NCBI GenBank assembly: GCA_025936175.1
Contig: JAICTV010000121.1
Span: 1-15,993, forward strand
Source of the DNA: Phycisphaerae bacterium
GTDB taxonomy: Bacteria > Planctomycetota > Phycisphaerae > Tepidisphaerales > Tepidisphaeraceae
DNA length: 15,993 nt
Direction of reading: 5' to 3'
Shown here: positions 2,525 to 14,955 of the stretch, in pieces
Position numbering within the stretch: position 1 is the stretch's first letter
Layout of the letters: the number at the start of each line of letters is the position of its first letter
Made by a program: the position numbers and the translations under genes
Notes under the pieces: generated by a model
The model's database searches: none
Seen by the model: only the letters and a program-made list of their open reading frames with translations
Told to the model about the DNA's origin: nothing

Positions 2525-3373
2525 TCAATTGAACCGCAGCGTGAGGACCCACGCACGCCAGTCTTTCTCGAATTGCTCGAACGATTGCGGTGCGGTGATC
2601 TGCTCGAGGTGTTTCAAACCCGTCGAATCGTCGTCGTGATCGTCGCGAAAACGGCGGTAGAAGTCGCGCAGCTTGCGCTTCTCCTGAAGGTACATCAGGA
2701 GATATCGCGCCTGCGCATAATTCATGCCGGTGCGCTCGGCGTTGTAGAAGTCATCGTCCGCGATCATCTCCGACAGCGGGCGCAGCTTGTTCTGACGGAT
2801 CGCGCGCTGCAATGCCGGCAGCCGCCAGTTCTCCAGCCCGCGGATGTCGTTGTCGACGAGCGTGCATTGTTCGAACAGGCTTCCCAGACCTTCGTTGAGC
2901 CAGCTCGGGGCGTCGGCAAAATCCGGCTTGATCAGCGCGTGCACCAGCTCGTGCACGAGCGTGCCGGTGCCGGTCGAGACGTTCATCAGCATGACGTTGT
3001 CGCGCTGGCGGAAGTAGCCGTAGCGCGAGACGTCCTCGTCGCCGAACCATTTCTTCGCCGCGTGGCGATACGGTTCGTCCGATTCGAACAGGAGTATCAG
3101 GATCGGCTCGGTTGGTTGGCGATCGAAGAACTTTCGATGCAGCGCATCGACCGCCGCGAGGATCGTGTTGTGGAGATAGCGATTGACGCGTTCCGCCCCG
3201 CCGTCGCCCGCGACGACGAACGGCGGCGAGACGATCGCCGTCATGTGCGCGGCGTCGAGTCGATCGCGCCACTTGTCGAGCAGCGAGCGGCACTTCTCAT
3301 CCAATGATGGCCGCGACGCGGGAGTCGCGCCGAGACAAACCAGCGCGCAGACGATCGCCGGCAGCGTTCGCAT
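2525..3373 (-). CDS. Secreted putative zinc metallopeptidase-like protein (HExxH ... NEG motif; DUF1570-like)
   Basis: 282-aa ORF with an N-terminal signal peptide (MRTLPAIVCALVCLGATPAS). It carries the motifs LVHELVHAL and WLNEGLGSLFE, an HExxH plus downstream Glu arrangement like the DUF1570 family. The frame has high GC3, whereas the overlapping + strand ORF 2372..3307 is Arg-rich with an antisense-like composition. The family assignment is from memory of the motif, not from a search. Confidence 0.7.
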   Translation of the reverse strand: MRTLPAIVCALVCLGATPASRPSLDEKCRSLLDKWRDRLDAAHMTAIVSPPFVVAGDGGAERVNRYLHNTILAAVDALHRKFFDRQPTEPILILLFESDEPYRHAAKKWFGDEDVSRYGYFRQRDNVMLMNVSTGTGTLVHELVHALIKPDFADAPSWLNEGLGSLFEQCTLVDNDIRGLENWRLPALQRAIRQNKLRPLSEMIADDDFYNAERTGMNYAQARYLLMYLQEKRKLRDFYRRFRDDHDDDSTGLKHLEQITAPQSFEQFEKDWRAWVLTLRFN

Positions 3374-3405: not shown

Positions 3406-3807
3406 TTAATCCCAGCGGAAAACGCCCTTGCCCCACGCGTACGCGTACGCGACCAGCAGCAGCGCAACGAAGATCAAGAGGCTGATAAGCAGCGCCGCCC
3501 CCTGCTGCGGCGTGCCGGTACGGACGACCGGCGCGAAGATCGTCGCCCAGGGGTAGAAGAAGATGATGTCCACGTCGATGACCAGGAAGATCATCGCGAC
3601 GATGTAGAAGCGGACGTTGAACCGCCGGCGGGTGTCGCCGACGGGGACCATGCCGCTCTCGTAGGTCGCCGCCTTGCCCGGCCCGGTGCGGCTGGGGCCG
3701 ATGATCAGCGATGCGACGATGTTGCTGACGACGAAACCTACGCCGATGATGATCAACAGCACGACCGGCAGCCAGTTGGACGGGGCATCTTCCATGTCGG
3801 GCGGCAT
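3406..3807 (-). CDS. nuoA: NADH-quinone oxidoreductase subunit A
   Basis: Translation reads MPPDMEDAPSNWLPVVLLIIIGVGFVVSNIVASLIIGPSRTGPGKAATYESGMVPVGDTRRRFNVRFYIVAMIFLVIDVDIIFFYPWATIF...LIFVALLLVAYAYAWGKGVFRWD, a canonical NuoA/ND3 with three TM helices and the conserved ESG and FD(V/I)E motifs. The track ORF starts at 3882, but the upstream 25 codons run through the heptamer repeat. ATG at 3807 (or the second ATG at 3795, MEDAPS...) gives a normal ~130-aa NuoA. Confidence 0.85.
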   Translation of the reverse strand: MPPDMEDAPSNWLPVVLLIIIGVGFVVSNIVASLIIGPSRTGPGKAATYESGMVPVGDTRRRFNVRFYIVAMIFLVIDVDIIFFYPWATIFAPVVRTGTPQQGAALLISLLIFVALLLVAYAYAWGKGVFRWD

Positions 3808-3811
3808 AGTA

Positions 3812-3906
3812 GATTTGCGATTTGCGATTTGCAATTTGCGATTTGATGCAGATTGGACGATTGAGTCCGTTTGCAATCGCAAATCGCAAATCTAAAATCG
3901 GAAATC
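3812..3906. repeat. ~95-bp imperfect palindrome made of heptamer repeats. Five direct GATTTGC-type units (3812-3846), a 26-bp spacer (itself containing GATTG x2), then five inverted GCAAATC-type units (3873-3906).
   Basis: Read directly: GATTTGC GATTTGC GATTTGC AATTTGC GATTTGA tgcagattggacgattgagtccgttt GCAATC GCAAATC GCAAATC TAAAATC GGAAATC GCAC. It fills the whole gap between the nuoA start (3807, minus) and the nuoB start (3911, plus). Confidence 0.8.
3871..3898 (+). promoter_or_regulatory. Putative sigma70-like promoter for nuoB embedded in the right repeat arm (TTGCAA -16 nt- TAAAAT), implying a very short leader. A mirrored TTGCAA(3829-3834) -17 nt- TACTAT(3811-3806) exists on the minus strand for nuoA.
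   Basis: Hexamers are read from the sequence. -35 TTGCAA at 3871-3876 matches TTGACA at 5/6. -10 TAAAAT at 3893-3898 matches TATAAT at 5/6. The spacer is 16 nt. The predicted TSS at ~3905 is 6 nt before the nuoB ATG. This is a pattern match only, and this clade's promoter consensus is unknown. Confidence 0.3.
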
Positions 3907-3910
3907 GCAC

Positions 3911-4480
3911 ATGATCGACACCCAACAGCTTCCCGACAACGTCCTGACCACGCAGCTCAAGAAGGTCGTCAACTGGGCGCGGCGCAGCTCGCTCTGGCCG
4001 ATGCCCTTCGCTACCGCGTGCTGCGGCATCGAGCTGATGGCCACCGGCGCATCGCGCTACGACATCGCCCGCTTCGGCGCCGAGGCGATGCGCTTTTCAC
4101 CGCGGCAGGCGGATCTGATGATCGTCGCCGGGCGCGTCACCATCAAAATGATGCCGGTCCTCCAGCACATCTACCAGCAGATGACCGAGCCGAAGTGGGT
4201 CATCTCGATGGGCGCGTGCGCCAGCACGGGCGGGGTGTTCGACGCGTACGCGACGATCCAGGGGATCGATCAGTTCATGCCGGTGGACGTCTACATCCCC
4301 GGCTGCCCGCCGCGACCCGAGACGCTGCTCGAAGGCGTGATGGCGATTCAGAAAATCGTCGATGAGGACGGCCTGCCTCCCGCGGGCAAGCGGCGCCCGC
4401 TGCAGATCGCAATCGAGCCGAGCTACGTCCCCTCGCCGCAGCCCGTCGTGCCGATCACCCTGGGTGGGCGCGGAATGTAA
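3911..4480 (+). CDS. nuoB: NADH-quinone oxidoreductase subunit B (20-kDa Fe-S subunit) with a ~40-aa Pro-rich C-terminal tail
   Basis: Contains [18 protein letters not shown] ... [11 protein letters not shown] ... IPGCPPRPE, which are the NuoB/PSST cysteine motifs for cluster N2. TAA at 4478-4480. Confidence 0.9.
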
Positions 4481-4542: not shown

Positions 4543-5253
4543 ATGCCCATCCTCCAAGGCGCGATCGAACGCAAGCTCTCCGCCCTCCTCGGGGCGCTCG
4601 TCACCTTCGACAAACTGAACCTGTCGCCGTTCAAGGGCGCGATCGAAGTTCTGGGCGTGCGCGTGGGCGACGTCGCCACCGTCGCGCGCGTACACGTCGA
4701 GGTCGCGATCGGCCGCGCGCTCAAGGGCGAGTTTGTCGTCAAGTCACTGACAATCGAGCGACCGACGGTGAATCTCGTCCGGCGTGCGGACGGATCGTTG
4801 AACCTTCCCAAGCCCAAGTCCAAACCTCCGGCCGCGGCGCCCGCCCCGGCGGAAGCGGAAGAAGAATCCGGCAAGTGGACGTTCGACGCGGAGAAGGTGT
4901 TGCTCGTCGACGGCCAGGTCAACATCATCGCCGGCACGTATCGAGCGTCGGTCGAGAGGCTACTGGTGGAGCTCAAACGATCCGGCGGCGCATACAACGT
5001 CACGCTTCTCGCCCATTCGATCGGCCGGCGCGACGAGCCGGCGGAACTGGGCGAACTTCGCGGCAACGGCGTCATCACCAACGCCGCCGACCTCTCCGCC
5101 CTCTCCCGCGCCGCTGCCGACCTCACGCTGCAACTGGGCGATCTGCTGAAGATGAAGCTCCGCACCGCCGAGATCGGCAGCCTGGTGTTCGACGCCGCGC
5201 TCGACGGGCACATAGACGTTGCGCGCGTCAAGAAGCTGCTCCCGCCCTCGTAG
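4543..5253 (+). CDS. Hypothetical protein with an AsmA-like repeat motif (no N-terminal TM)
   Basis: 236-aa ORF with high GC3 and normal Lys/Glu content, unlike the overlapping Arg-rich ORFs 4362..5438(+) and 4533..5528(-). The segment IEVLGVRVGDVATVARVHVEVAIGRALKGEFVVKSLTIERPTVNLVRRADGSLNL resembles the repeated beta-rich motif of AsmA/TamB-family proteins (...L.L.RP.i.L.R..DG..N). This is judged from memory only. Confidence 0.55.
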   Translation: MPILQGAIERKLSALLGALVTFDKLNLSPFKGAIEVLGVRVGDVATVARVHVEVAIGRALKGEFVVKSLTIERPTVNLVRRADGSLNLPKPKSKPPAAAPAPAEAEEESGKWTFDAEKVLLVDGQVNIIAGTYRASVERLLVELKRSGGAYNVTLLAHSIGRRDEPAELGELRGNGVITNAADLSALSRAAADLTLQLGDLLKMKLRTAEIGSLVFDAALDGHIDVARVKKLLPPS

Positions 5254-5280
5254 GGGCGACGCCTGCGTCGCCCTCTTTTG
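5253..5280 (+). terminator. Putative rho-independent terminator directly after the 4543..5253 stop: GC-rich 8-9 bp hairpin (GGGCGACG cctg CGTCGCCC) followed by TCTTTTG
   Basis: Stem pairs 5254-5261 with 5266-5273, loop 5262-5265, T-tract 5274-5279. A reverse-complementary copy of the stem at 5292-5311 allows an alternative long hairpin (see findings). Confidence 0.5.
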
Positions 5281-5353
5281 GGCGCGGCGGTGGCGACGCA
5301 GGCGTCGCCCCTACTTGTCCCACTTGCGCGCCGGCCGTACGTTTTTGTTCGCG

Positions 5354-6301
5354 ATGTCCACCCCCGAAGCGGTCCTGGTCGCCGAGCAGTTGCGCGTCCG
5401 CTTCGGCGGATTCGATGCCGTACACGATGTCTCGCTGACGCTGCGCGGCGGAGATCTGCTCGGACTGATCGGGCCCAACGGCGCCGGCAAGACGACGCTG
5501 CTCCGCGCACTCTGCGGCATCCAGCCACTCACGCGCGGCGTGGTGAATGTCCTCGGCGAGCCACTCGTCCCGGGCGCATCACACCTGATCCGCCACCTCG
5601 GCTTCACTCCCGACACGCCGGCAGTTTACGAAGAGCTCACCGTGCGCGATTTCCTCCGCTTCATCGCCAAGGGCTACGAGCACGCCGGGCCGGAAGTCGA
5701 TGAGCGCATCAATTTCTGGCTCGAGAAAGTATGGCTGCTTGAAAAAGCCGGGATGAAGATCAAGACCCTGTCGCGCGGGATGCGGCAGCGCATCGGCATC
5801 GCGCGCACGCTGCTGCCAAATCCGTCGATCGTGCTGCTGGACGAGCCCACCGCCGGCCTCGACCCCGCCGGCCGGGTCCAGTTCCGCCAACTGCTCGTGA
5901 CCTTGCGCGAACAGGGCAAAGGACTGATCGTGTCATCGCACAACCTGCTCGACATGGGCGAGTACTGCTCGCACATCGCCATCATGTCCAAGGGACAGAT
6001 CGTGCGTTACGGCACGGTCAACGAGATCGCCACCGGCGGCGACGCGAGCCGCTGCCGGTACACCATCACTCTCGCGCATCCCGTCACGCGCGTCGAGCAG
6101 ATGCTCGAATCGATCGACGACGTCGGCGACGTCGAGATCGACGGCGAGCGGATCACGATCGAGTTCATCAACGATAAGGACGCGGCGGCCGCCCTGCTGC
6201 TCAAGCTCATCGAAATGAAGCTCCCGGTCGCGTCGTTCGCGCCCAACGCGCCGGGATTGGAAGAAGCGTACTTAAGGACGGAAGTGGCGCAGGTGGATTA
6301 A
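5354..6301 (+). CDS. ABC transporter ATP-binding protein (ABC-2/CcmA-like family) with ~100-aa C-terminal accessory domain
   Basis: Walker A GPNGAGKTT, signature LSRGMRQR, Walker B IVLLDEPTAGLD, and an H-loop (SSHNL). The track ORF begins at 5219, but its first 45 codons read through the upstream terminator hairpins. ATG at 5354 (MSTPEAVLVAEQLRVRFGG...) is the biologically sensible start. TAA at 6299-6301. Confidence 0.9.
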   Translation: MSTPEAVLVAEQLRVRFGGFDAVHDVSLTLRGGDLLGLIGPNGAGKTTLLRALCGIQPLTRGVVNVLGEPLVPGASHLIRHLGFTPDTPAVYEELTVRDFLRFIAKGYEHAGPEVDERINFWLEKVWLLEKAGMKIKTLSRGMRQRIGIARTLLPNPSIVLLDEPTAGLDPAGRVQFRQLLVTLREQGKGLIVSSHNLLDMGEYCSHIAIMSKGQIVRYGTVNEIATGGDASRCRYTITLAHPVTRVEQMLESIDDVGDVEIDGERITIEFINDKDAAAALLLKLIEMKLPVASFAPNAPGLEEAYLRTEVAQVD

Positions 6302-6335
6302 GAGATTTGCGATTTGCAAATCGCAAATTGCAAAT
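6302..6335. repeat. Second copy of the GATTTGC-heptamer palindrome: GAGATTTGC GATTTGC AAATCGC AAATTGC AAAT, with a perfect 24-bp palindrome at 6305-6328
   Basis: Read directly. It sits in the 37-bp gap between the ABC ATPase stop (6301) and the permease ATG (6339). It is built from the same unit as 3812..3906. Confidence 0.8.
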
Positions 6336-6338
6336 ACC

Positions 6339-7778
6339 ATGGCCTTGCTCGGCCCCAACAACGCGATCGCCTGGGCGCAGTTTCGACTGAGAGGCGGCTG
6401 GAAGAAGTCGCTCGGCTTCAGCGCCGGTGTGTTCGCGCTGCTGGCGATGTTCGTCATCGGCGCGGCGAAGTACGACCCGACGCAGACGACGCGCAATCTC
6501 TTCGGCTGGTGCACCGGGCTGCTCGGACTTGCGGGCGCGGCCGTCGTGCTGATGGCGCCGGGGCGGATCGCGGCCGCCATTCGCGCCGACATCAAGAGCG
6601 GCTTGATCGAATCGCACCGCCTGATGCCGACGACGCCGATCGACGCCGTCGCCGGCTACGTCGTCGGCGCCGCGATCGGTCCGTTGATCTTCTTTGCAGG
6701 CATCTACGTGCTGGGACTGTTCTGCGCTTCCGGCGCGGGCGTTCCACTGGCGCAATGGACCTTCGCCAGCCTCGTGCTGCTCGCGTTCTCGACCTTCATC
6801 TGGGTCCTCGCCGCCTACGTCTCGTTCGCGTCGAAGGCCGGGCCCGGCCTGCTGATCATCCCGCTGTTCGCGATGCCATACGCGTCGGCCGGTGGACTCT
6901 TTTCGCTGCTGCCGGGGATGACGGTGCTCATCAGTCCGATGGCCGGCGGCACCATCTTTGACCTGCGCACCGCCGCGACGATGGCGCTCCCGCCGACCTA
7001 TGCGATGGCGTTCGCGATGCAGGCCCTGGTCGGCGGCATCCTCTTCTTCGCCGCCGCGCGACGCTATCGCACCGCCGACGCCATCGGGCTCGATTGGGCG
7101 CTGGGGCTGATGTTGGTGATTGCGTGGACGTTGCTGTCGGCGATCGGCCTGCGCGAGTGGGACATTTATGAGCCGCGCGGCTGGGGCGTCGGCGGGAAGA
7201 TCGAGCTTTCCGGACGCCTCATCGCCACGATGGTGACCGGCATGATCCTCGCGCTCGCGCCGCTGTCGGCCTCCGCGCTGGCGATGCAACATTGGCGGCG
7301 GCACAAACGCCTGCGCGATCCGTCGCCGATGCGCAGGCCTCTGTTCCCGGGCCTCGTGTTGCTCGCGGTGACGATTGCGATCCTGCTCGTCGTCTACGCA
7401 CCGCCGGATGTTCCCAAGCCCGCGCTCGGCGACGTCGCGCTCAGCGCCATCACCATCGCGATCTCGCTCGCAGCGATCTACTTCCTCTGTGCGTGGCTCT
7501 ACCTCGGCACGCAAAACGCGGCGATCCCGATCATCATCTGGATCATCGTCTTCTGGCTCGTGCCCGTCTTCGTGGACCTGATCCGCTTCGCGCTGGCCGA
7601 CTACGGCGAAGCCGATCCGATCGGCGGCATCTCCGCGTGCAGCCCGATCGGCGCGCTCATCGTCATCTGGACGCATCGCAGCGCGCCGATCATCGCCGGA
7701 ATCGTGATGCAATTGCTCATCATGACGATCCCGCTGGCGCTGCGGATGATCCTGCGCCCCCGGCGAGCTACCCACTAG
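6339..7778 (+). CDS. Polytopic membrane protein, probable fused/duplicated ABC-2 family permease (~12 TM) partner of the upstream ATPase
   Basis: 479 aa, strongly hydrophobic throughout. The N-terminal half has the ABC-2 permease-like segment IKSGLIESHRLMPTTPIDAVAGYVVG (the E...L...P motif). It is 38 bp downstream of the ATPase gene on the same strand, so co-transcription is likely. The opposite-strand 525-aa ORF 6207..7784 is an Arg/Asp-rich shadow. Confidence 0.75.
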   Translation: MALLGPNNAIAWAQFRLRGGWKKSLGFSAGVFALLAMFVIGAAKYDPTQTTRNLFGWCTGLLGLAGAAVVLMAPGRIAAAIRADIKSGLIESHRLMPTTPIDAVAGYVVGAAIGPLIFFAGIYVLGLFCASGAGVPLAQWTFASLVLLAFSTFIWVLAAYVSFASKAGPGLLIIPLFAMPYASAGGLFSLLPGMTVLISPMAGGTIFDLRTAATMALPPTYAMAFAMQALVGGILFFAAARRYRTADAIGLDWALGLMLVIAWTLLSAIGLREWDIYEPRGWGVGGKIELSGRLIATMVTGMILALAPLSASALAMQHWRRHKRLRDPSPMRRPLFPGLVLLAVTIAILLVVYAPPDVPKPALGDVALSAITIAISLAAIYFLCAWLYLGTQNAAIPIIIWIIVFWLVPVFVDLIRFALADYGEADPIGGISACSPIGALIVIWTHRSAPIIAGIVMQLLIMTIPLALRMILRPRRATH

Positions 7779-7988: not shown

Positions 7989-10151
7989 ATGACACAACTC
8001 TTCACATCGTCTCTTCAAACGCTCGCCGTCGGCATGCCCGACAGCAGCCAGGCCTGGGTCATGATCGCGATCGTCGGCGTGATCGTCCTGATCGTGCTGC
8101 TCGTCGGCGGACGGATGACGCTCGGCGCGTGCGGCGTGCGTTACATCCCCAACGACCGCGTCGGCATCGTCGAAAAACTATGGTCCGCCAAGGGATCGCT
8201 CGCCGAAGGCCGCATCATCGCCGCCAATGGCGAAGCCGGTTACGAAGCGCGTCTGCTTCGCGGCGGCATACACTTCCGCAAGTGGAGCTGGCAATATCGG
8301 ATCCACAAGGTGCCGCTCGTGACCATCCCGCAGGGCAAGGTCGGTTACATCTACGCCCGCGACGGCGCCACGCTGCAACCGGGACAAACCCTCGGCCGCG
8401 TCGTCGAGTGCGCGAATTTTCAGGACGCGGAGAAGTTCCTCTTCGGCGACGGCAAGACGCTGCGCGGCCAGCGCGGCCGACAGCGCTCGATCCTGCGCGA
8501 AGGCGTCTACGCGATCAACCTGGCCGCGTTCGTCGTCATCACCGAGCAGCAGGTCTATCACCTGGACCTGGGCGGCAACCGCGGCGAGCTGGAAAAGCTC
8601 GTCGGTTGGCAACAGGAATTGCGCTCGTGCAACGGCTTCAGTCCGGTCGTCATCGGCGAGGAAATGTCCGCCATCGATCCGCTCAACCCGGACAAGCAGA
8701 TCGCCGTCGACTCCATCGGCATCGTCACGATCCACGACGGTCCGTCGCTCGCGCCGGGTGAAATCATCGCCCCCGCGTGCGGCAACGACCCGCAGGAGAC
8801 GAACTATCACAACAACTACCAGGACCCCGAGGCCTTCCTTGCCGCCGGCGGACGACGCGGTCGTCAGTACGTCCCGCTCACCGACGGCACCTACTTCATC
8901 AACCGCTGGTTCGCCTCGATCGAAGTGCTGCCGAAGACGATCGTCCCGATCGGCTACGTCGGCGTGGTCGTCAGCTACTACGGGCCGATGGGCAAGGATC
9001 TCTCGGGCGAAGCCTTCCGTCACGGCGAGCGCGTCGCGCGCGGCGAGCGCGGCGTGTGGGAAAAACCCCTCGGCCCCGGCAAGTACCCGTTCAATACTTA
9101 CGCCGGCGTCCTGGTGCTCGTCCCCACAACCAACTTCGTGCTGCACTGGGTCACCGGTCGCACGGAAACGCACCGCTACGACGACACGCTCAAGTCGATC
9201 GAGATGGTGACCAAGGACGCATACGAGCCGACGCTCCCGCTCAGCGTCGTCGTGCACATCGACTACATGAAGGCCCCGTCGGTCATCCAGCGCTTCGGCG
9301 ACGTGAAGAAGCTGATCACGCAGACGCTCGATCCGATGCTGTCGGCGTACTTCCGCGACGTCGCGCACAAGCGCACGATGCTCGCGCTGCTGCAGGAACG
9401 CGATTCCATCCAGCTCGAAGCGCGAAAGGAACTGCAACGCCGGTTCGAAGAGTTCGACATCCAGTGCGTCGACGTCCTGATCGGCAAGCCCGACACGCAG
9501 GAAGCCGGCGGAAAGATCGAAACGCTGCTCGAGCAGCTTCGCCAGCGGCAGCTTTCGGTCGAGCAGATTGAAACTTATCAGCGCCAGCGCGCTGCGTCGG
9601 AAGAGCAGAAGAAGCTCAACGAAGCGCAGGCGATGGCCGCCCGGCAGACGGAGTTGACCGGCTCGAAGGTGCAGATCGAGATCGCGCGTAACCAGGCGGA
9701 TGCGGACCTGGAGCGCGCCCGCAAGCAGGCGGAGCAGACGATCGTCACCGCCGAAGCCGAATCCAAGCAGCGCATGCTCGCCGGCCAGGGCGAAGCCAAG
9801 CGCATCGGCGAGATCGGTCAAGCGGAAGCGGACGTGCTGCGTCAGAAGATCGCCAGCTTCATGGATCCGAAGCTCTACGCGGTCGCGGTGCTCGCCGAGC
9901 ACCTGAGCAAAAGCAGCCAGCCGCTGGTGCCGCAGCAAGTTTTCACTGCCGGCGGCGGTGGCGGGAGCGGCGCGGGAGACTCCTCGGGCCTTGGTTTGAT
10001 GGGTACTCTGGTGAATCTGCTGATCGCCGAAAAAAGCGGATTTAAAATTCAGAGTGCCGCAGGAAACGGCAACGCCGAATTAACTCGTGCGACACCGGTC
10101 ACGCCGGACCCCGCGCTGATCGCGCCAAAGATCGAAGCGCGAAAGAGTTAG
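7989..10151 (+). CDS. Flotillin-family SPFH/band-7 membrane protein (FloT/YqiK-like), atypically long at 720 aa
   Basis: A strong Shine-Dalgarno AAGGCGGAGG (7972-7981) sits 7 nt before ATG 7989, which argues against the upstream in-frame ATG 7899. There is an N-terminal TM helix (AWVMIAIVGVIVLIVLLVGG) and SPFH-like segments (RYIPNDRVGIVEKLW...; LKSIEMVTKDAYEPTLPLSVVVHIDY). The C-terminal region is flotillin-type and EA/Q-rich (QAEQTIVTAEAESKQRMLAGQGEAKRIGEIGQAEADVLRQKIASF...LAEHLSKSSQPLVP...GGGGGSGAG...). The opposite-strand 586-aa ORF is a shadow. Confidence 0.85.
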   Translation: MTQLFTSSLQTLAVGMPDSSQAWVMIAIVGVIVLIVLLVGGRMTLGACGVRYIPNDRVGIVEKLWSAKGSLAEGRIIAANGEAGYEARLLRGGIHFRKWSWQYRIHKVPLVTIPQGKVGYIYARDGATLQPGQTLGRVVECANFQDAEKFLFGDGKTLRGQRGRQRSILREGVYAINLAAFVVITEQQVYHLDLGGNRGELEKLVGWQQELRSCNGFSPVVIGEEMSAIDPLNPDKQIAVDSIGIVTIHDGPSLAPGEIIAPACGNDPQETNYHNNYQDPEAFLAAGGRRGRQYVPLTDGTYFINRWFASIEVLPKTIVPIGYVGVVVSYYGPMGKDLSGEAFRHGERVARGERGVWEKPLGPGKYPFNTYAGVLVLVPTTNFVLHWVTGRTETHRYDDTLKSIEMVTKDAYEPTLPLSVVVHIDYMKAPSVIQRFGDVKKLITQTLDPMLSAYFRDVAHKRTMLALLQERDSIQLEARKELQRRFEEFDIQCVDVLIGKPDTQEAGGKIETLLEQLRQRQLSVEQIETYQRQRAASEEQKKLNEAQAMAARQTELTGSKVQIEIARNQADADLERARKQAEQTIVTAEAESKQRMLAGQGEAKRIGEIGQAEADVLRQKIASFMDPKLYAVAVLAEHLSKSSQPLVPQQVFTAGGGGGSGAGDSSGLGLMGTLVNLLIAEKSGFKIQSAAGNGNAELTRATPVTPDPALIAPKIEARKS

Positions 10152-11451: not shown

Positions 11452-13590
11452 ATGTTGCCCGCCGCCGTGCCTTTGAACCCGCACCAGGAACAAATCGCCA
11501 ACCACGTCTTCGGCCGAATCCTCACCCTCGCGGGGCCGGGATCGGGAAAGACGCGCACGCTCACCGAGCGCACCGGCCGGCTGATCCGCCACGGCTTCGA
11601 GCCGGCGTCGATCCTCTGCCTCACGTTCACGAACAAGGCGCGTGACGAGATGCGGCAGCGGATCGCCGCCGTGCAGGGCAAGGCGGCAGAAAAAGTCTTC
11701 ATCTCGAACTTTCACGGCCTGTGCGGGACGCTGCTGCGGCGATTCGGCGCCGCGATCGGCTACACCGCGCGGATGACGATCTGCGACAGCGACGATCAGA
11801 TCGACCTGCTCCTCCAGATCGCCCGCCGCCGCGGGCTCGAGCCCACCAAACCGCAAGCGCGCACGCTCGCCTTCATCGCCAACGACTTTCGCGAAAACAA
11901 TTCCGATCTCGAGTCGCTCGCGGCGGATCGCAAGCTCTCGGCGGGCGAGACGAACGTCGTCCGCGCGTACTTCGAGCTGCTGCGCTCGCGCAACCAGTGC
12001 GACTTCTCCGGCATGCTCAGCGAAGCCGCCCGGCTGCTGCGCGAGTGCGATGACGTCCGCGCGAAGCTCCACAAGCGCTTCCGCTTCATTCAGGTCGACG
12101 AGTACCAGGACACCAACAAGGCACAGAACGAGATCGTCGAGCTGCTCGCCGGCAAGGAGGACAACGTGCTCGCGGTCGGCGACGGCGATCAATCGATCTA
12201 CGAGTGGCGCGGCGCCACGCCGGACGCCATCCCGCAGTTCATCGCCAACGGCCGGCGCAAGACCGGCAAGTGCGAAGTGATCAAGCTCGGGCTGAACTAT
12301 CGCTCGACGCCGCAGATCATCCGGGCGGCGGACACGCTGATCCGCCACTGCAAATCGCGCACGCCGATCGATTTCGACACGCCCAACAAGGCGGGCGAGC
12401 CGCCCAGGTGCGTCAAGTTCGAGCATCCGGAGGCCGAGGCCGAAGGCGTCGCGACCAGCATCGCGAACACGATCAAGTCCGGCACGACGGCGCGCGAGAT
12501 CGCGGTGTTCTTCCGCACCAACGACATGTCACGGCTGATGGAGCAGTCGCTGGCGAAGCGGCAAATTCCGTATCAGGTCGTCGGTGCCGGCTCATACTAC
12601 GACCGGATGGAAGTCAAAGACGTGCTGTCGATGCTGCGCTTCGTCTGCAATCCGTTCGACGGGATCTCCTTCCATCGCATTGCCAACAAACCCGCGCGCG
12701 GCATGGGCGACACGCTGATCGGCCGGCTCGAGCACTTCGCCGAGCTGCACAAGATCGACATCCTCACCGCGATGCAGGAGCGGAACCTGGAATTCGTCCG
12801 CGACGAGAACGACAAGCCGCTCTCGGACGCCGCCCTCCGCGCCTGCCGTGAGACGCGCTGCATCTTCGATTTCGACGTCGCGCGCGCCGGCGTCGCCGAC
12901 GTCGCGAGCGAGCTTCTCCGCCGCAGCCGATACGATGAGTGGCTCAAAGCCCGCTACGACGAGAAGAGCGAGTACGAGGAGCGCAGCCGCAACGTGAACG
13001 AGCTCGTGAACGCGATCGCGGAGTTCGCGCGCACGAACGGCGGTGGCGGCGCGGGCGTCGGTGGCGCCGCGGGCGTCGGCGAATATCTCGAATCGATCTC
13101 GCTCTACACCGCCGGCGACGACGCCAAAGAGGACGAGCGCAAGAACGGCGTCCGCCTGATGTCGCTGCACGCGAGCAAGGGGCTGGAGTTCGACGTGGTC
13201 TACATGATCGGCGTCGAGCACCGCATCCTGCCGCACGAGAAAGCGCTGGCCGATCGCGGCGAGCGCGGACTGGATGAAGAGCGTCGGCTGTGCTACGTCG
13301 GCTTCACGCGGGCGAAAAAGATCCTGCGGGTCACATGGTGCCAGAAGCGGCAGGACGCCTACGCGCGCGGAAAAACCCCGCGATTCAAGCCGTCGGCGCC
13401 CTCGCAGTTTCTTCTCGAAGCCGGTCTGGTCGGCACGGATGATTTCCAGAAGCTGATGCAGGGCGCCGGATACGCGCCGCAGCAGGGCGTGCCCGCCGCG
13501 AAGGCGGTCCCGCCCACGCCCAAGCCAGTGCGCCCCCGCGCGACGCTGAAGTCACGTCGATCAATTCCGCGCACGGCTGCGAAGCAGTAA
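11452..13590 (+). CDS. UvrD/PcrA/Rep-family ATP-dependent DNA helicase (SF1A)
   Basis: LNPHQEQIA...LTLAGPGSGKTRTLTERTGRLI (motif I), CLTFTNKARDEM (Ia), FRFIQVDEYQDTN (II, DEYQD), SIYEWRGA (III), C-terminal ...LMSLHASKGLEFDVVYMIGV...RRLCYVGFTRAKKIL (V/VI). 712 aa with a basic Pro-rich C-terminal tail. Confidence 0.9.
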   Translation: MLPAAVPLNPHQEQIANHVFGRILTLAGPGSGKTRTLTERTGRLIRHGFEPASILCLTFTNKARDEMRQRIAAVQGKAAEKVFISNFHGLCGTLLRRFGAAIGYTARMTICDSDDQIDLLLQIARRRGLEPTKPQARTLAFIANDFRENNSDLESLAADRKLSAGETNVVRAYFELLRSRNQCDFSGMLSEAARLLRECDDVRAKLHKRFRFIQVDEYQDTNKAQNEIVELLAGKEDNVLAVGDGDQSIYEWRGATPDAIPQFIANGRRKTGKCEVIKLGLNYRSTPQIIRAADTLIRHCKSRTPIDFDTPNKAGEPPRCVKFEHPEAEAEGVATSIANTIKSGTTAREIAVFFRTNDMSRLMEQSLAKRQIPYQVVGAGSYYDRMEVKDVLSMLRFVCNPFDGISFHRIANKPARGMGDTLIGRLEHFAELHKIDILTAMQERNLEFVRDENDKPLSDAALRACRETRCIFDFDVARAGVADVASELLRRSRYDEWLKARYDEKSEYEERSRNVNELVNAIAEFARTNGGGGAGVGGAAGVGEYLESISLYTAGDDAKEDERKNGVRLMSLHASKGLEFDVVYMIGVEHRILPHEKALADRGERGLDEERRLCYVGFTRAKKILRVTWCQKRQDAYARGKTPRFKPSAPSQFLLEAGLVGTDDFQKLMQGAGYAPQQGVPAAKAVPPTPKPVRPRATLKSRRSIPRTAAKQ

Positions 13591-13828: not shown

Positions 13829-13901
13829 GCGGGTGTAGCTCAATTGGCAGAGCGTGGGCTTTCCAAGCCCAATGTTGAGGGTTCAACTCCCTTCACCCGC
13901 T
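13829..13901 (+). tRNA. tRNA-Gly (anticodon UCC), 73 nt, CCA not encoded
   Basis: Manual fold. Acceptor GCGGGTG/CACCCGC (7 bp). D-stem GCTC/GAGC with loop AATTGGCA. Anticodon stem TGGGC/GCCCA with loop TTTCCAA, giving anticodon TCC and A37. Variable loop ATGTT. T-stem GAGGG/CCCTT with loop TTCAACT. Discriminator U. Confidence 0.9.
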
Positions 13902-13905
13902 CATC

Positions 13906-13980: not shown

Positions 13981-14955
13981 CTATTTTCCCCCCGTCGTGG
14001 CGATGCCCTGGATGAAGGTCCGCTGCGTCAGGAAGAACAGCACGATCACCGGCAGGCAGACGAGCAAGGATGCGGTCATGAGCAGGTGCCACTCGGTGCC
14101 GCCGTGCTGGCTCTGGAAGGATTGCAGGCCCAGCGCGAGCGTGTACTGATCGGGAAGCTGCAGGTAGACCAGCGGCCCGAGAAAATCGTTCCACGCCGCC
14201 ATGAAAGCGAAGAGCGCGACGACCGCGAGCGCGGGACGCGCCAGCGGCAGGATGATCCGCCAGAAGATCGCGAACTCACCGCACCCGTCGATGCGCGCGG
14301 CTTCGGACAGCTCGTTGGGCAGCGTCATGAAGAACTGGCGCAGCAGGAAGATGCTGAATGCCTGCCCGAACCACGCCGGCAGCCAGAGCGGCTTGAACGT
14401 GCCGAGCATCCGCAGCGGATTGTCCCGGCCGAGCCACGCAATCGTGTGCACGTCCATCCAGCGGAAGATGCGAAACAGCGACACCATCGTCACCGGGAAC
14501 GGGATCATGATCGTCGCCAGCATGATGACGAACAGCACGCCCCGCCCGCGGAACGGAATGCGCGCGAACGCGTAGGCGGCGAGGGAACTGGAGACGACGG
14601 TGCCGGCGACGGTGAGGAACGCGACGATGAGCGTGTTGCGCGTGTAGGTCGCGAAGCGAAAGCGGCTGTGGCGAAAAACATCGAGGTAGTTCTGCGGCTG
14701 AAACGGGTGCGGGACGAAACGCGGCGGATATTCGCTGGTTCCTTCCAGCGTCTTGAGGCTCGTCGAGAGCATCCAGACGAACGGCAGCAGGAATGCAAGG
14801 CATACGCAGAGCAGGCCGACGTGGAAGAGCACCGCGTCGATCGGAATTGCCGAAGACCGCGCGCGCGGCGGCGCGGCAGGCTCCTGCCACACCGGTTTTG
14901 GCCGCGCGATCGCCGGCGGCGGCAACGCGGGCGCGAGCCTGGCCGCGTCAGGCAT
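13981..14955 (-). CDS. Carbohydrate ABC transporter permease, MalG/UgpE-like (second permease), with a ~40-aa Pro/Ala-rich N-terminal extension
   Basis: EAA-loop signature EAARIDGCGEFAIFWRIILPLARPAL, six TM segments, and the N-terminal NYLDVF motif typical of the MalG/UgpE type. The start ATG (complement 14953-14955) overlaps the upstream gene stop as ATGCCTGA, implying translational coupling. Overlapping + strand ORFs are Arg-rich shadows. Confidence 0.85.
   Translation of the reverse strand: MPDAARLAPALPPPAIARPKPVWQEPAAPPRARSSAIPIDAVLFHVGLLCVCLAFLLPFVWMLSTSLKTLEGTSEYPPRFVPHPFQPQNYLDVFRHSRFRFATYTRNTLIVAFLTVAGTVVSSSLAAYAFARIPFRGRGVLFVIMLATIMIPFPVTMVSLFRIFRWMDVHTIAWLGRDNPLRMLGTFKPLWLPAWFGQAFSIFLLRQFFMTLPNELSEAARIDGCGEFAIFWRIILPLARPALAVVALFAFMAAWNDFLGPLVYLQLPDQYTLALGLQSFQSQHGGTEWHLLMTASLLVCLPVIVLFFLTQRTFIQGIATTGGK

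Follow-up and report, generated by a model that had tools for sequence, protein, structure and literature searches.

A GATTTGC heptamer palindrome at an ABC ATPase–permease junction of a Phycisphaerae bacterium, absent from its close relatives

The element and its locus

The contig JAICTV010000121.1 of a Phycisphaerae bacterium (assembly GCA_025936175.1), of which the whole 15,993-nt stretch is called the window here, encodes an ABC ATPase followed on the same strand by a 479-residue permease. The gap between the two genes is filled by a short palindrome built from the heptamer GATTTGC and its reverse complement GCAAATC. We refer to this element as site 2, and to a longer array of the same unit in the nuoA/nuoB gap, 2.5 kb away, as site 1. 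Site 2 spans positions 6302–6335 and reads GAGATTTGCGATTTGCAAATCGCAAATTGCAAAT, namely (GATTTGC)2 placed head-to-head with (GCAAATC)3. The features at this junction are as follows, with the basis of each assignment in parentheses (TRF, Tandem Repeats Finder).

6299–6301, plus strand: TAA stop codon of the ABC ATPase gene, DrrA/GldA-like (alignment with orthologous loci)
6302–6335, no strand: site 2, the 34-nt heptamer palindrome filling the ATPase–permease gap (sequence, TRF, alignment with loci L135 and L136)
6304–6317, plus strand: left (5′) arm of site 2, two GATTTGC units, beginning 2 nt past the ATPase stop codon (TRF)
6305–6328, no strand: core of site 2, the perfect 24-nt palindrome ATTTGCGATTTGCAAATCGCAAAT (sequence)
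6316–6335, plus strand: right (3′) arm of site 2, GCAAATC GCAAATT GCAAAT, sharing its GC with the left arm and ending 3 nt short of the permease ATG (sequence, TRF)
6339–6341, plus strand: ATG start codon of the 479-residue permease, kept in orthologues (alignment)

Given that the ATPase stop codon occupies 6299–6301, site 2 begins at the very next base. The 37-nt gap consists of site 2 (34 nt) and the trinucleotide ACC at 6336–6338, which gives the layout TAA-GA-(GATTTGC)2(GCAAATC)3-ACC-ATG. The initial annotation of the window had described a perfect 24-bp palindrome of GATTTGC units at 6305–6328, within an element that begins 1 nt after the ATPase TAA and ends 3 nt ahead of the permease ATG, and both the sequence and this placement are confirmed. 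Alignment with two orthologous loci also confirmed the C-terminus of the ATPase (...AQVD*) and the N-terminus of the permease, M(A/S)L(L/I)GPNNAIAWAQF. The label of an ABC-2 transporter remains plausible: the ATPase is DrrA/GldA-like, though below the cut-off, but the permease has no Pfam or NCBIfam family.

The unit GATTTGC occurs 10 times on the two strands of the window against an expectation of 2.96 ± 1.85, a count reached in none of 200 dinucleotide-preserving shuffles, and 8 of the 10 copies lie within sites 1 and 2. A palindrome with 12-nt arms and no loop arose in one of 200 such shuffles of this CG-rich window. The palindrome of site 2 is by itself unusual, not astronomically so, and it stands beyond chance because its unit is shared with site 1. 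Repeat analysis by TRF returned period-7 tracts at 3812–3845 (4.9 copies), 3875–3909 (5.0), 6304–6317 (2.0) and 6316–6335 (2.9); site 2 is made of head-to-tail 7-nt tandem units, but at the lower limit of the definition of an array. Both sites are AT-rich islands of 50%–57% GC in surroundings of 65%–70% GC. The left 15 nt of site 2 (AGATTTGCGATTTGC) and its right 19 nt (CAAATCGCAAATTGCAAAT) are exact direct or inverted copies of parts of the left arm of site 1, and the variant unit GCAAATT is common to both places. These matches may reflect templated copying, but low-complexity repeats are also expected to match in this way.

Orthologous junctions in related lineages

The orthologous ATPase–permease junctions were compared in seven further loci, listed below with the amino-acid identity of their permeases where given.

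L151: contig 99.96% identical to the window from an independent Logan assembly; junction with the same palindrome
L135: permease 90%, nuoB DNA 93% identical; junction TAA-AGC-ATG (3 nt)
L136: permease 86%; junction TGA-CGC-ATG (3 nt)
L153: permease 48%; ATTGACG-type inverted repeat at 3252–3356
L138: permease 47%; (ACTGAGG)n...(CCTCAGT)n at 66–143, 6 nt before the ATG
L137: permease 46%; GC-rich inverted repeat
L152: permease 42%; perfect 22-nt palindrome ATTCGATGTTC/GAACATCGAAT at 9953–10000

The flanks of L135 and L136 align base for base, so that site 2 is a clean 34-nt insertion in the window. The synteny comparison that the initial annotation had proposed for this intergenic gap accordingly separates the window from its close relatives, both of which have 3-nt junctions without the palindrome. 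Comparison of the filled site (TAA, 34 nt, ACC-ATG) with the empty one (TAA-AGC-ATG) showed no target-site duplication, and the hexamer TTGCAA is absent from the empty sites of L135 and L136.

The four more distant lineages L138, L152, L153 and L137 carry inverted repeats at this junction that are unrelated to site 2, so an inverted repeat is found here in five of seven lineages. In these genomes, roughly every third gap of 25 nt or more contains a perfect inverted repeat whose arms measure 10 nt or longer, whereas shuffles average 5.8 and give at most 10. Given this background, five of seven at the permease junction is not clearly special; special selection for a hairpin at this very junction was considered and found not to be significant. 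In the inverted arrays of L138, L144 and L153 and in the palindrome of L152 alike, the GT-rich arm lies 5′; the L144 array, (TCAGGGT)n/(ACCCTGA)n at 14148–14280, sits between other divergent genes.

The companion array between nuoA and nuoB

Site 1 consists of two arms separated by a spacer, with a promoter-like sequence at its nuoB side.

3812–3845, plus strand: left arm, (GATTTGC)3 AATTTGC GATTTG; read on the minus strand it is (GCAAATC)n ending 4 nt before the nuoA ATG at 3807 (repeat analysis, TRF)
3846–3874, no strand: spacer of about 30 nt; a −35-like hexamer TTGCAA (3871–3876) straddles the border between it and the right arm
3871–3898, plus strand: promoter-like TTGCAA-16 nt-TAAAAT ahead of nuoB, its hexamers kept in L135, L154 and L156
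3875–3909, plus strand: right arm, AATC GCAAATC GCAAATC TAAAATC GGAAATC GCA, ending 1–2 nt before the nuoB ATG at 3911 (repeat analysis, TRF)

The two arms are 88% complementary and the site folds with z = −6. By Pfam assignment, nuoA is encoded by the minus strand, with its ATG at 3807, and nuoB by the plus strand, with its ATG at 3911. Site 1 therefore lies in a divergent promoter gap and not between co-directional cistrons, a correction to the initial annotation. The (GCAAATC)n strand is the sense strand of the permease, nuoA and nuoB, ending 3, 4 and about 2 nt before the respective ATGs, and no Shine-Dalgarno sequence was found in the genes inspected. The genes that come after nuoB are a DUF748 gene and the ABC transporter, not nuoC.

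Arrays of the GATTTGC family also occupy the nuoA/nuoB gap of two Phycisphaerales metagenome-assembled genomes (MAGs; loci L154/L155 and L156), whose nuoB DNA shows 86% identity to that of the window and 98% identity between the two. The array-like arm is the right one in L154 (GCAAATC GCAAATC TAAAATC GCAAATC) but the left one in L156, where the right arm is not array-like; the arms therefore turn over at 98% identity of the adjacent gene. The gap of L135 retains only remnants of site 1. Kept in all four lineages (window, L135, L154 and L156) is the pair TTGC[A/C]A-16/17 nt-TA[A/G]AAT, whose second hexamer ends 12–13 nt before the nuoB ATG. By its sequence this pair is a putative sigma-70-like promoter of nuoB, which would leave a leader no longer than about 5–6 nt; its counterpart in L135 lies at 1641–1670. 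In the window, heptamer units occupy the spacer of this putative promoter, and only in the window and L154 is the spacer between the hexamers heptamer-periodic.

The variant unit TAAAATC stands at the gene-proximal end of (GCAAATC)n in the window (3893–3899) and in L003, L045, L066, L118 and L154, that is, in planctomycete and several Acidobacteriota sequences. Of 127 (GCAAATC)n arrays, 10, mostly from Acidobacteriota, are followed by a TA[AG]AAT hexamer no more than 30 nt away; in the opposite orientation the count is 2 of 127. TAAAAT as a general −10 box inside the arrays was rejected on this count; it holds for nuoB here, not family-wide. The repeat of site 1 appears to be mainly a DNA-level feature and that of site 2 to lie within the operon transcript, so that the repeat family has no single functional context.

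The wider GATTTGC family and the heptamer class

A search of a species-representative genome collection for (GATTTGC)3 returned at least 119 loci in about 13 phyla, against a chance expectation, by our own arithmetic, of about 0.3 for a 21-mer in 596 Gb. Among the matches listed, the record titles name Bacteroidota 35 times, Acidobacteriota 27, Verrucomicrobiota 18, Chloroflexota 11, Planctomycetota 9 (including Tepidisphaerales) and candidate-phyla-radiation bacteria 4, with single matches elsewhere including one archaeon, and several MAGs have 3–5 loci each. Among the same matches Proteobacteria are nearly absent and there are no Firmicutes or Actinobacteria, a skew that is provisional. These three groups dominate genome collections.

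In 0.82 Mb of matched loci, TRF detected 313 period-7 arrays, made up of 131 distinct units; period 6 accounts for 34 arrays and period 8 for 47. The matched genomes are rich in heptamer repeats, and GATTTGC is one unit of many. Two JGI contigs illustrate how such arrays change: L144 (14100–14345) and L145 (7051–7290) are identical over about 240 nt, save that a (TCAGGGT)n/(ACCCTGA)n pair has one more 7-nt unit in one contig than in the other, and a difference of a single unit is a signature of slippage. The exact 24-nt palindrome of site 2 occurs at 5 loci in 241 million metagenome records, in 4 unrelated contexts of 35%–44% GC. A dispersed mobile element of fixed sequence was rejected, given that the exact palindrome has only these five, all unrelated, metagenome loci.

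Six Bacteroidales/Rikenellaceae loci (L007, L009, L023, L030, L096 and L111) contain a composite made of another short repeat (for example AAGTCCGTA), (GATTTGC)3–4, GAATTTTAATTAAATC and (GACAATC/GAAAATC)n. It looks like a tight hairpin whose arms have drifted to different units, and like a dispersed element in these genomes. Short-read contigs often begin or end in or beside heptamer arrays (L001, L002, L157, L138 and several genome loci such as L024, L061, L072, L113 and L120); the arrays break assemblies, which fits a multi-copy repeat. All six frames of GATTTGC/GCAAATC repeats are free of stop codons, and TTG starts are available on the GATTTGC strand. Lists of open reading frames (ORFs) therefore run through the arrays, as does the ORF at 6314–6961 in the window, and gene callers could extend genes into them.

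Placement and polarity of the arrays

At the low-GC loci, 15 of 68 arrays lie in open frames, compared with 63% of random positions; the random scatter through coding regions that the initial annotation had named as evidence against its view is thus not seen. The arrays are oriented. Read as (GCAAATC)n, 23 of 121 arrays end no more than 20 nt from an ORF start (ORFs of 100 codons or longer); read as (GATTTGC)n, 5 of 125 do. The polarity at stop codons is identical (30 versus 12), and GATTTGC arrays adjoin stops as often as starts. For TRF-defined arrays, the GT-rich strand is directed away from the adjacent ORF boundary, whether start or stop, in 40 cases against 10 (p = 2e-5); other heptamers show the same preference at 43:23 (p = 0.02). 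A pure translation-start signal was therefore rejected as the source of the orientation, since a signal at start codons alone cannot explain a polarity that stop codons show too. The genes downstream of the arrays are unrelated housekeeping genes, such as those for NrdR, ribosomal proteins and GlyRS.

Inverted pairs also have a preferred order: GATTTGC precedes GCAAATC in 19 pairs and follows it in 2, with spacers from 0 to more than 150 nt and varying unit numbers. Site 2 conforms to all these rules, being non-coding and having the common polarity and arm order. To our knowledge, a fixed polarity relative to gene boundaries together with such a 19:2 arm order has not been reported.

Predicted hairpin and its probable effect on the permease

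The predicted RNA fold of site 2 is slipped in register by one unit and yields a 13-bp stem with one G-U pair, a 5-nt loop and a free energy of −15.9 kcal/mol. This stem spans from +4 after the ATPase stop to −4 before the permease AUG, leaving 3 nt free on each side. The initial annotation had proposed that a 12-bp stem hides the region where ribosomes load for the permease; the overlap is indeed predicted, but the fold favours the slipped 13-bp stem over the 12-bp one. When 12 nt past the stop codon were held single-stranded in the prediction, −7.4 kcal/mol was left in total, partly from pairing downstream of the AUG. A scan for intrinsic terminators found none at site 1 or site 2; the stem of site 2 is AT-rich and has no T tail. 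Neither site matched an Rfam family, the only feature of the window to reach a gathering score being a tRNA-Gly gene at 13829–13902.

According to this model, free 30S subunits would be hindered by the hairpin at the permease AUG, where no Shine-Dalgarno sequence is present. A ribosome terminating on the ATPase stop codon would cover or melt most of the 5′ arm and so free the permease AUG. The permease would then be translated mainly by coupling to the ATPase, probably at a lower rate. The modelled fold suggests that site 2 probably makes translation of the permease depend on that of the ATPase. Since the closest relatives manage without a hairpin, we regard this effect as a tolerated side-effect rather than a dedicated control device, and site 2 is probably a minor modulator for this ABC transporter.

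Comparison with known repeat systems

Heptamers are the most abundant long simple sequence repeats (SSRs) in many bacteria, and slippage has been proposed as the cause (Mrazek et al. 2007, as summarised in PMC4679880 and PMC4692102). Like the long heptanucleotide SSRs and the short tandemly repeated repetitive sequences (STRRs) of cyanobacteria, the GATTTGC arrays are 7-nt tandem repeats, mostly intergenic, with one unit at many loci per genome and, it appears, great variation of length and sequence between close relatives; some form inverted stem-loop pairs, and their phylogenetic distribution is scattered. They differ in that GATTTGC is undescribed in the literature searched, that the host is a planctomycete of the Phycisphaerae, and that site 2 is short (2 + 3 units) and has no spacer. 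Neither tandem GATTTGC nor tandem GCAAATC was found in a bacterial context in that literature. A known example of a heptamer is (GATAGRA)n of Chloroflexus (PMC6749651).

A parallel in placement is offered by the TAACTGA direct repeats of marine Beggiatoaceae, Cyanobacteria and Bacteroidetes, which lie a few nucleotides from starts in one orientation (MacGregor 2015, PMC4679880). They too are heptamers, in 2–6 copies per set, which overlap the place of the ribosome-binding site in a preferred orientation ahead of functionally unrelated genes in distant phyla (PMC4679880). However, they are nearly all direct (one indirect set in 169; PMC4679880), whereas inverted pairs of GATTTGC are frequent; TAACTGA carries stop codons and GATTTGC/GCAAATC none; and the GATTTGC arrays adjoin stops as often as starts. 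The GGGAATC repeats of Xanthomonas and the GGGGA(T/C)T repeats of Nostoc are likewise intergenic; some of them form inverted pairs, and they turn over rapidly (Rehm et al. 2015, PMC4692102). They share with the GATTTGC arrays the potential for stem-loops or cruciforms, the occurrence of some copies within operons (pecE-pecF) and the use of the same gene gaps in related species with extensive variation of length and sequence. Their units are G-rich and capable of forming G-quadruplexes, of which the AT-rich GATTTGC is incapable.

Repetitive extragenic palindromic (REP) sequences and their doublets (REPINs) are mobilised by REP-associated tyrosine transposases (RAYTs; Bertels and Rainey 2011, PMC3116915). 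Site 2 resembles them as a short intergenic palindrome arranged as an inverted hairpin doublet, located between cistrons and present or absent between relatives. A REP, however, has a fixed sequence of about 20–40 nt with a 5′ GT[AG]G, no tandem 7-nt units and no variation in unit number, whereas site 2 contains neither GTAG nor GTGG and its copies vary in length. Miniature inverted-repeat transposable elements (MITEs) are also small non-coding insertions with inverted symmetry that may be absent from the orthologous site of relatives. Unlike them, site 2 has no target-site duplication and no unique internal sequence, and its copies are not of fixed length. MITEs usually measure at least 50 nt, against the 34 nt of site 2.

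Other features of the window

The region between the DUF748-like gene and the ABC ATPase gene contains a perfect 23-nt inverted repeat at 5250–5314 (GTAGGGGCGACGCCTGCGTCGCC ... GGCGACGCAGGCGTCGCCCCTAC). Each arm is itself a small palindrome with GTAG at its start, and the structure is kept in L135 (2968–3025) with identical arms and a different loop. By its sequence, this GC-rich inverted repeat looks like a REP doublet (REPIN), and it is a far better fit to that class than site 2. The tRNA-Gly gene mentioned above (anticodon TCC) lies downstream of a UvrD-like helicase gene, the 3′ part of which contains an 18-nt tandem repeat in 2.2 copies at 13041–13079 (CGGTGGCGCCGCGGGCGT). The window also encodes DUF1570 and PEP-CTERM proteins; together with the names borne by members of the nuoB 90% cluster (Phycisphaerales, Tepidisphaeraceae), these assign the contig to the Phycisphaerae of the Planctomycetota.

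Interpretation

We propose that site 2 is a lineage-specific, hairpin-forming GATTTGC/GCAAATC array belonging to the known class of intergenic heptanucleotide SSRs, which arrived at this junction by insertion. We assign this reading a probability of roughly 0.6. The repeat is a new unit, in a new phylum, within a known class. Arrays of this class fill non-coding gaps up to the reading frames, gain and lose whole 7-nt units, and have their tracts swapped fast between close relatives. At site 2, a 34-nt block (GATTTGC)2-(GCAAATC)3 has been inserted where close relatives have a 3-nt stop-start junction, and its source may be another array, such as the one in the nuoA/nuoB gap.

Several observations weigh against this proposal. 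The empty junction TAA-AGC-ATG contains no proto-repeat, so slippage alone is insufficient and a step of seeding or copying is needed. Site 2 itself shows no polymorphism in the number of GATTTGC units, its one near-clone (L151) being identical, and its 81-nt context folds unexceptionally (z = −1.7). Arrays persist in the nuoA/nuoB gap of lineages with 86% identical nuoB DNA, possibly through selection at that gap. Both the strict polarity and the recurrence of a single unit across about 13 phyla are hints of a factor that recognises the sequence, or of some active process in addition to neutral slippage. Among viral contigs, (GATTTGC)3 is no commoner than composition-matched shuffled heptamers (5 loci against 4 and 4), a result with no bearing on cellular genomes.

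Chance or an assembly artefact would find some room in the single shuffle of 200 that produced a palindrome with 12-nt arms, but we consider this explanation already refuted: the motif count exceeds that of all 200 shuffles, the unit stands at two sites, the independent Logan assembly and ENA contigs contain the identical sequence, and related arrays occupy the orthologous nuoA/nuoB gap of two NCBI MAGs. The claim of the initial annotation that two copies betray a functional family rather than chance is accordingly upheld for the existence of a genuine repeat family (0 of 200 shuffles, at least 119 loci) but not for operator function. A shared or gene-specific operator fails the test of conservation, given that the palindrome is absent from the junctions of L135 and L136 despite permeases 90% and 86% identical, the unit recurs at many loci, and site 1 is partly retained and partly rewritten between relatives. 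The two sites differ in geometry (no spacer against about 30 nt), stops are adjoined as often as starts, and the neighbours in about 13 phyla are unrelated housekeeping genes. The broader form of this idea, in which the arrays bind protein at the DNA level, as an operator or a nucleation site for a nucleoid protein (AT-rich islands in a genome of 66% GC), and co-regulate nuoA/nuoB with the ABC operon, is very unlikely in our estimate. It draws on the flanking or overlap of a conserved promoter by the site 1 arrays, on their persistence at 86% identity, on their AT-rich composition (50%–57% against 65%–70% GC) and symmetric arrangement, and on the likeness to the TTTTGAT (= GATTTTT) heptad repeats of the cholera toxin promoter ctxAB, which recruit regulators (10.1101/2021.05.14.444153). 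Yet site 2 is missing in close relatives and lies inside an operon at a junction needing no promoter, the array sequence turns over at 98% identity, the two sites differ in geometry, and the neighbouring genes across phyla (NrdR, ribosomal proteins, GlyRS) are functionally unrelated.

Two further explanations were weighed. A selected RNA hairpin, which would tune the operon by guarding the ATPase transcript against 3′ exonucleases or would set subunit stoichiometry by slowing permease translation or coupling it to that of the ATPase, is suggested by the predicted 13-bp stem (−15.9 kcal/mol) reaching from stop to AUG where no Shine-Dalgarno sequence exists, and by the unrelated inverted repeats at the same junction in five of seven lineages. 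REP hairpins between cistrons are known to stabilise the upstream mRNA in the mal operon. We nevertheless find this explanation improbable: the two closest relatives have a 3-nt junction, about one third of all gaps carry inverted repeats, the repeat of site 1 lies mostly upstream of the likely transcription start of nuoB and so outside its mRNA, and arrays adjoin stops and starts alike. A miniature mobile element, REP/REPIN- or MITE-like and moved by a transposase encoded elsewhere (a RAYT or a hairpin-recognising enzyme of the IS200/IS605 type) without target duplication, would account for the clean 34-nt insertion into a 3-nt gap without proto-repeat, for the palindromic structure, for the multiple copies in several genomes, for the 19:2 arm order and for the frequent assembly breaks at arrays. 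It is unlikely all the same, since there are no target-site duplication, no conserved termini and no 5′ GT[AG]G, unit numbers and spacers (0 to >150 nt) vary, single-unit changes resemble slippage, the exact palindrome appears in only 4 unrelated low-GC contexts among 241 million metagenome records, and no transposase is encoded in the window or related loci. The variant put forward in the initial annotation, an element that targets TTGCAA, is contradicted in addition by the empty sites, which lack that hexamer. Lastly, GATTTGC/GCAAATC arrays might constitute a cross-phylum, actively propagating hairpin element with intrinsic polarity (the GT-rich arm in every case 5′, and the GT-rich strand in every case directed away from the gene beside it), seeded de novo by copying or insertion into junctions down to 3 nt and recognised by a conserved nucleic-acid-binding factor in phyla poor in Shine-Dalgarno sequences (Bacteroidota, Acidobacteriota, Verrucomicrobiota, Chloroflexota and Planctomycetota); we consider this unlikely.

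In summary, the locus offers a natural comparison of the states before and after insertion: two relatives have a stop-start junction of 3 nt, and in the window the junction measures 37 nt and is filled by the repeat. This comparison shows that arrays can be seeded without a proto-repeat, and it provides a ready-made construct for tests of translational coupling. The findings also call for practical caution, as arrays that lack stop codons and break assemblies can pass for an operator, a MITE or a stretch of coding sequence. The question of how heptamer repeats arise in bacteria, and of what they do, goes back to the description of STRRs (1990) and of the dominance of heptamers among long SSRs (2007). 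Worth following are the de novo seeding, the spread of one unit across phyla and the polarity rule, which holds for one unit in about 13 phyla, is weaker in other heptamers and is not predicted by pure slippage. If the reading as an actively propagating element were true, heptamer repeats would be more than noise of replication: they would form a general level of organisation at gene boundaries that has so far gone unrecognised.

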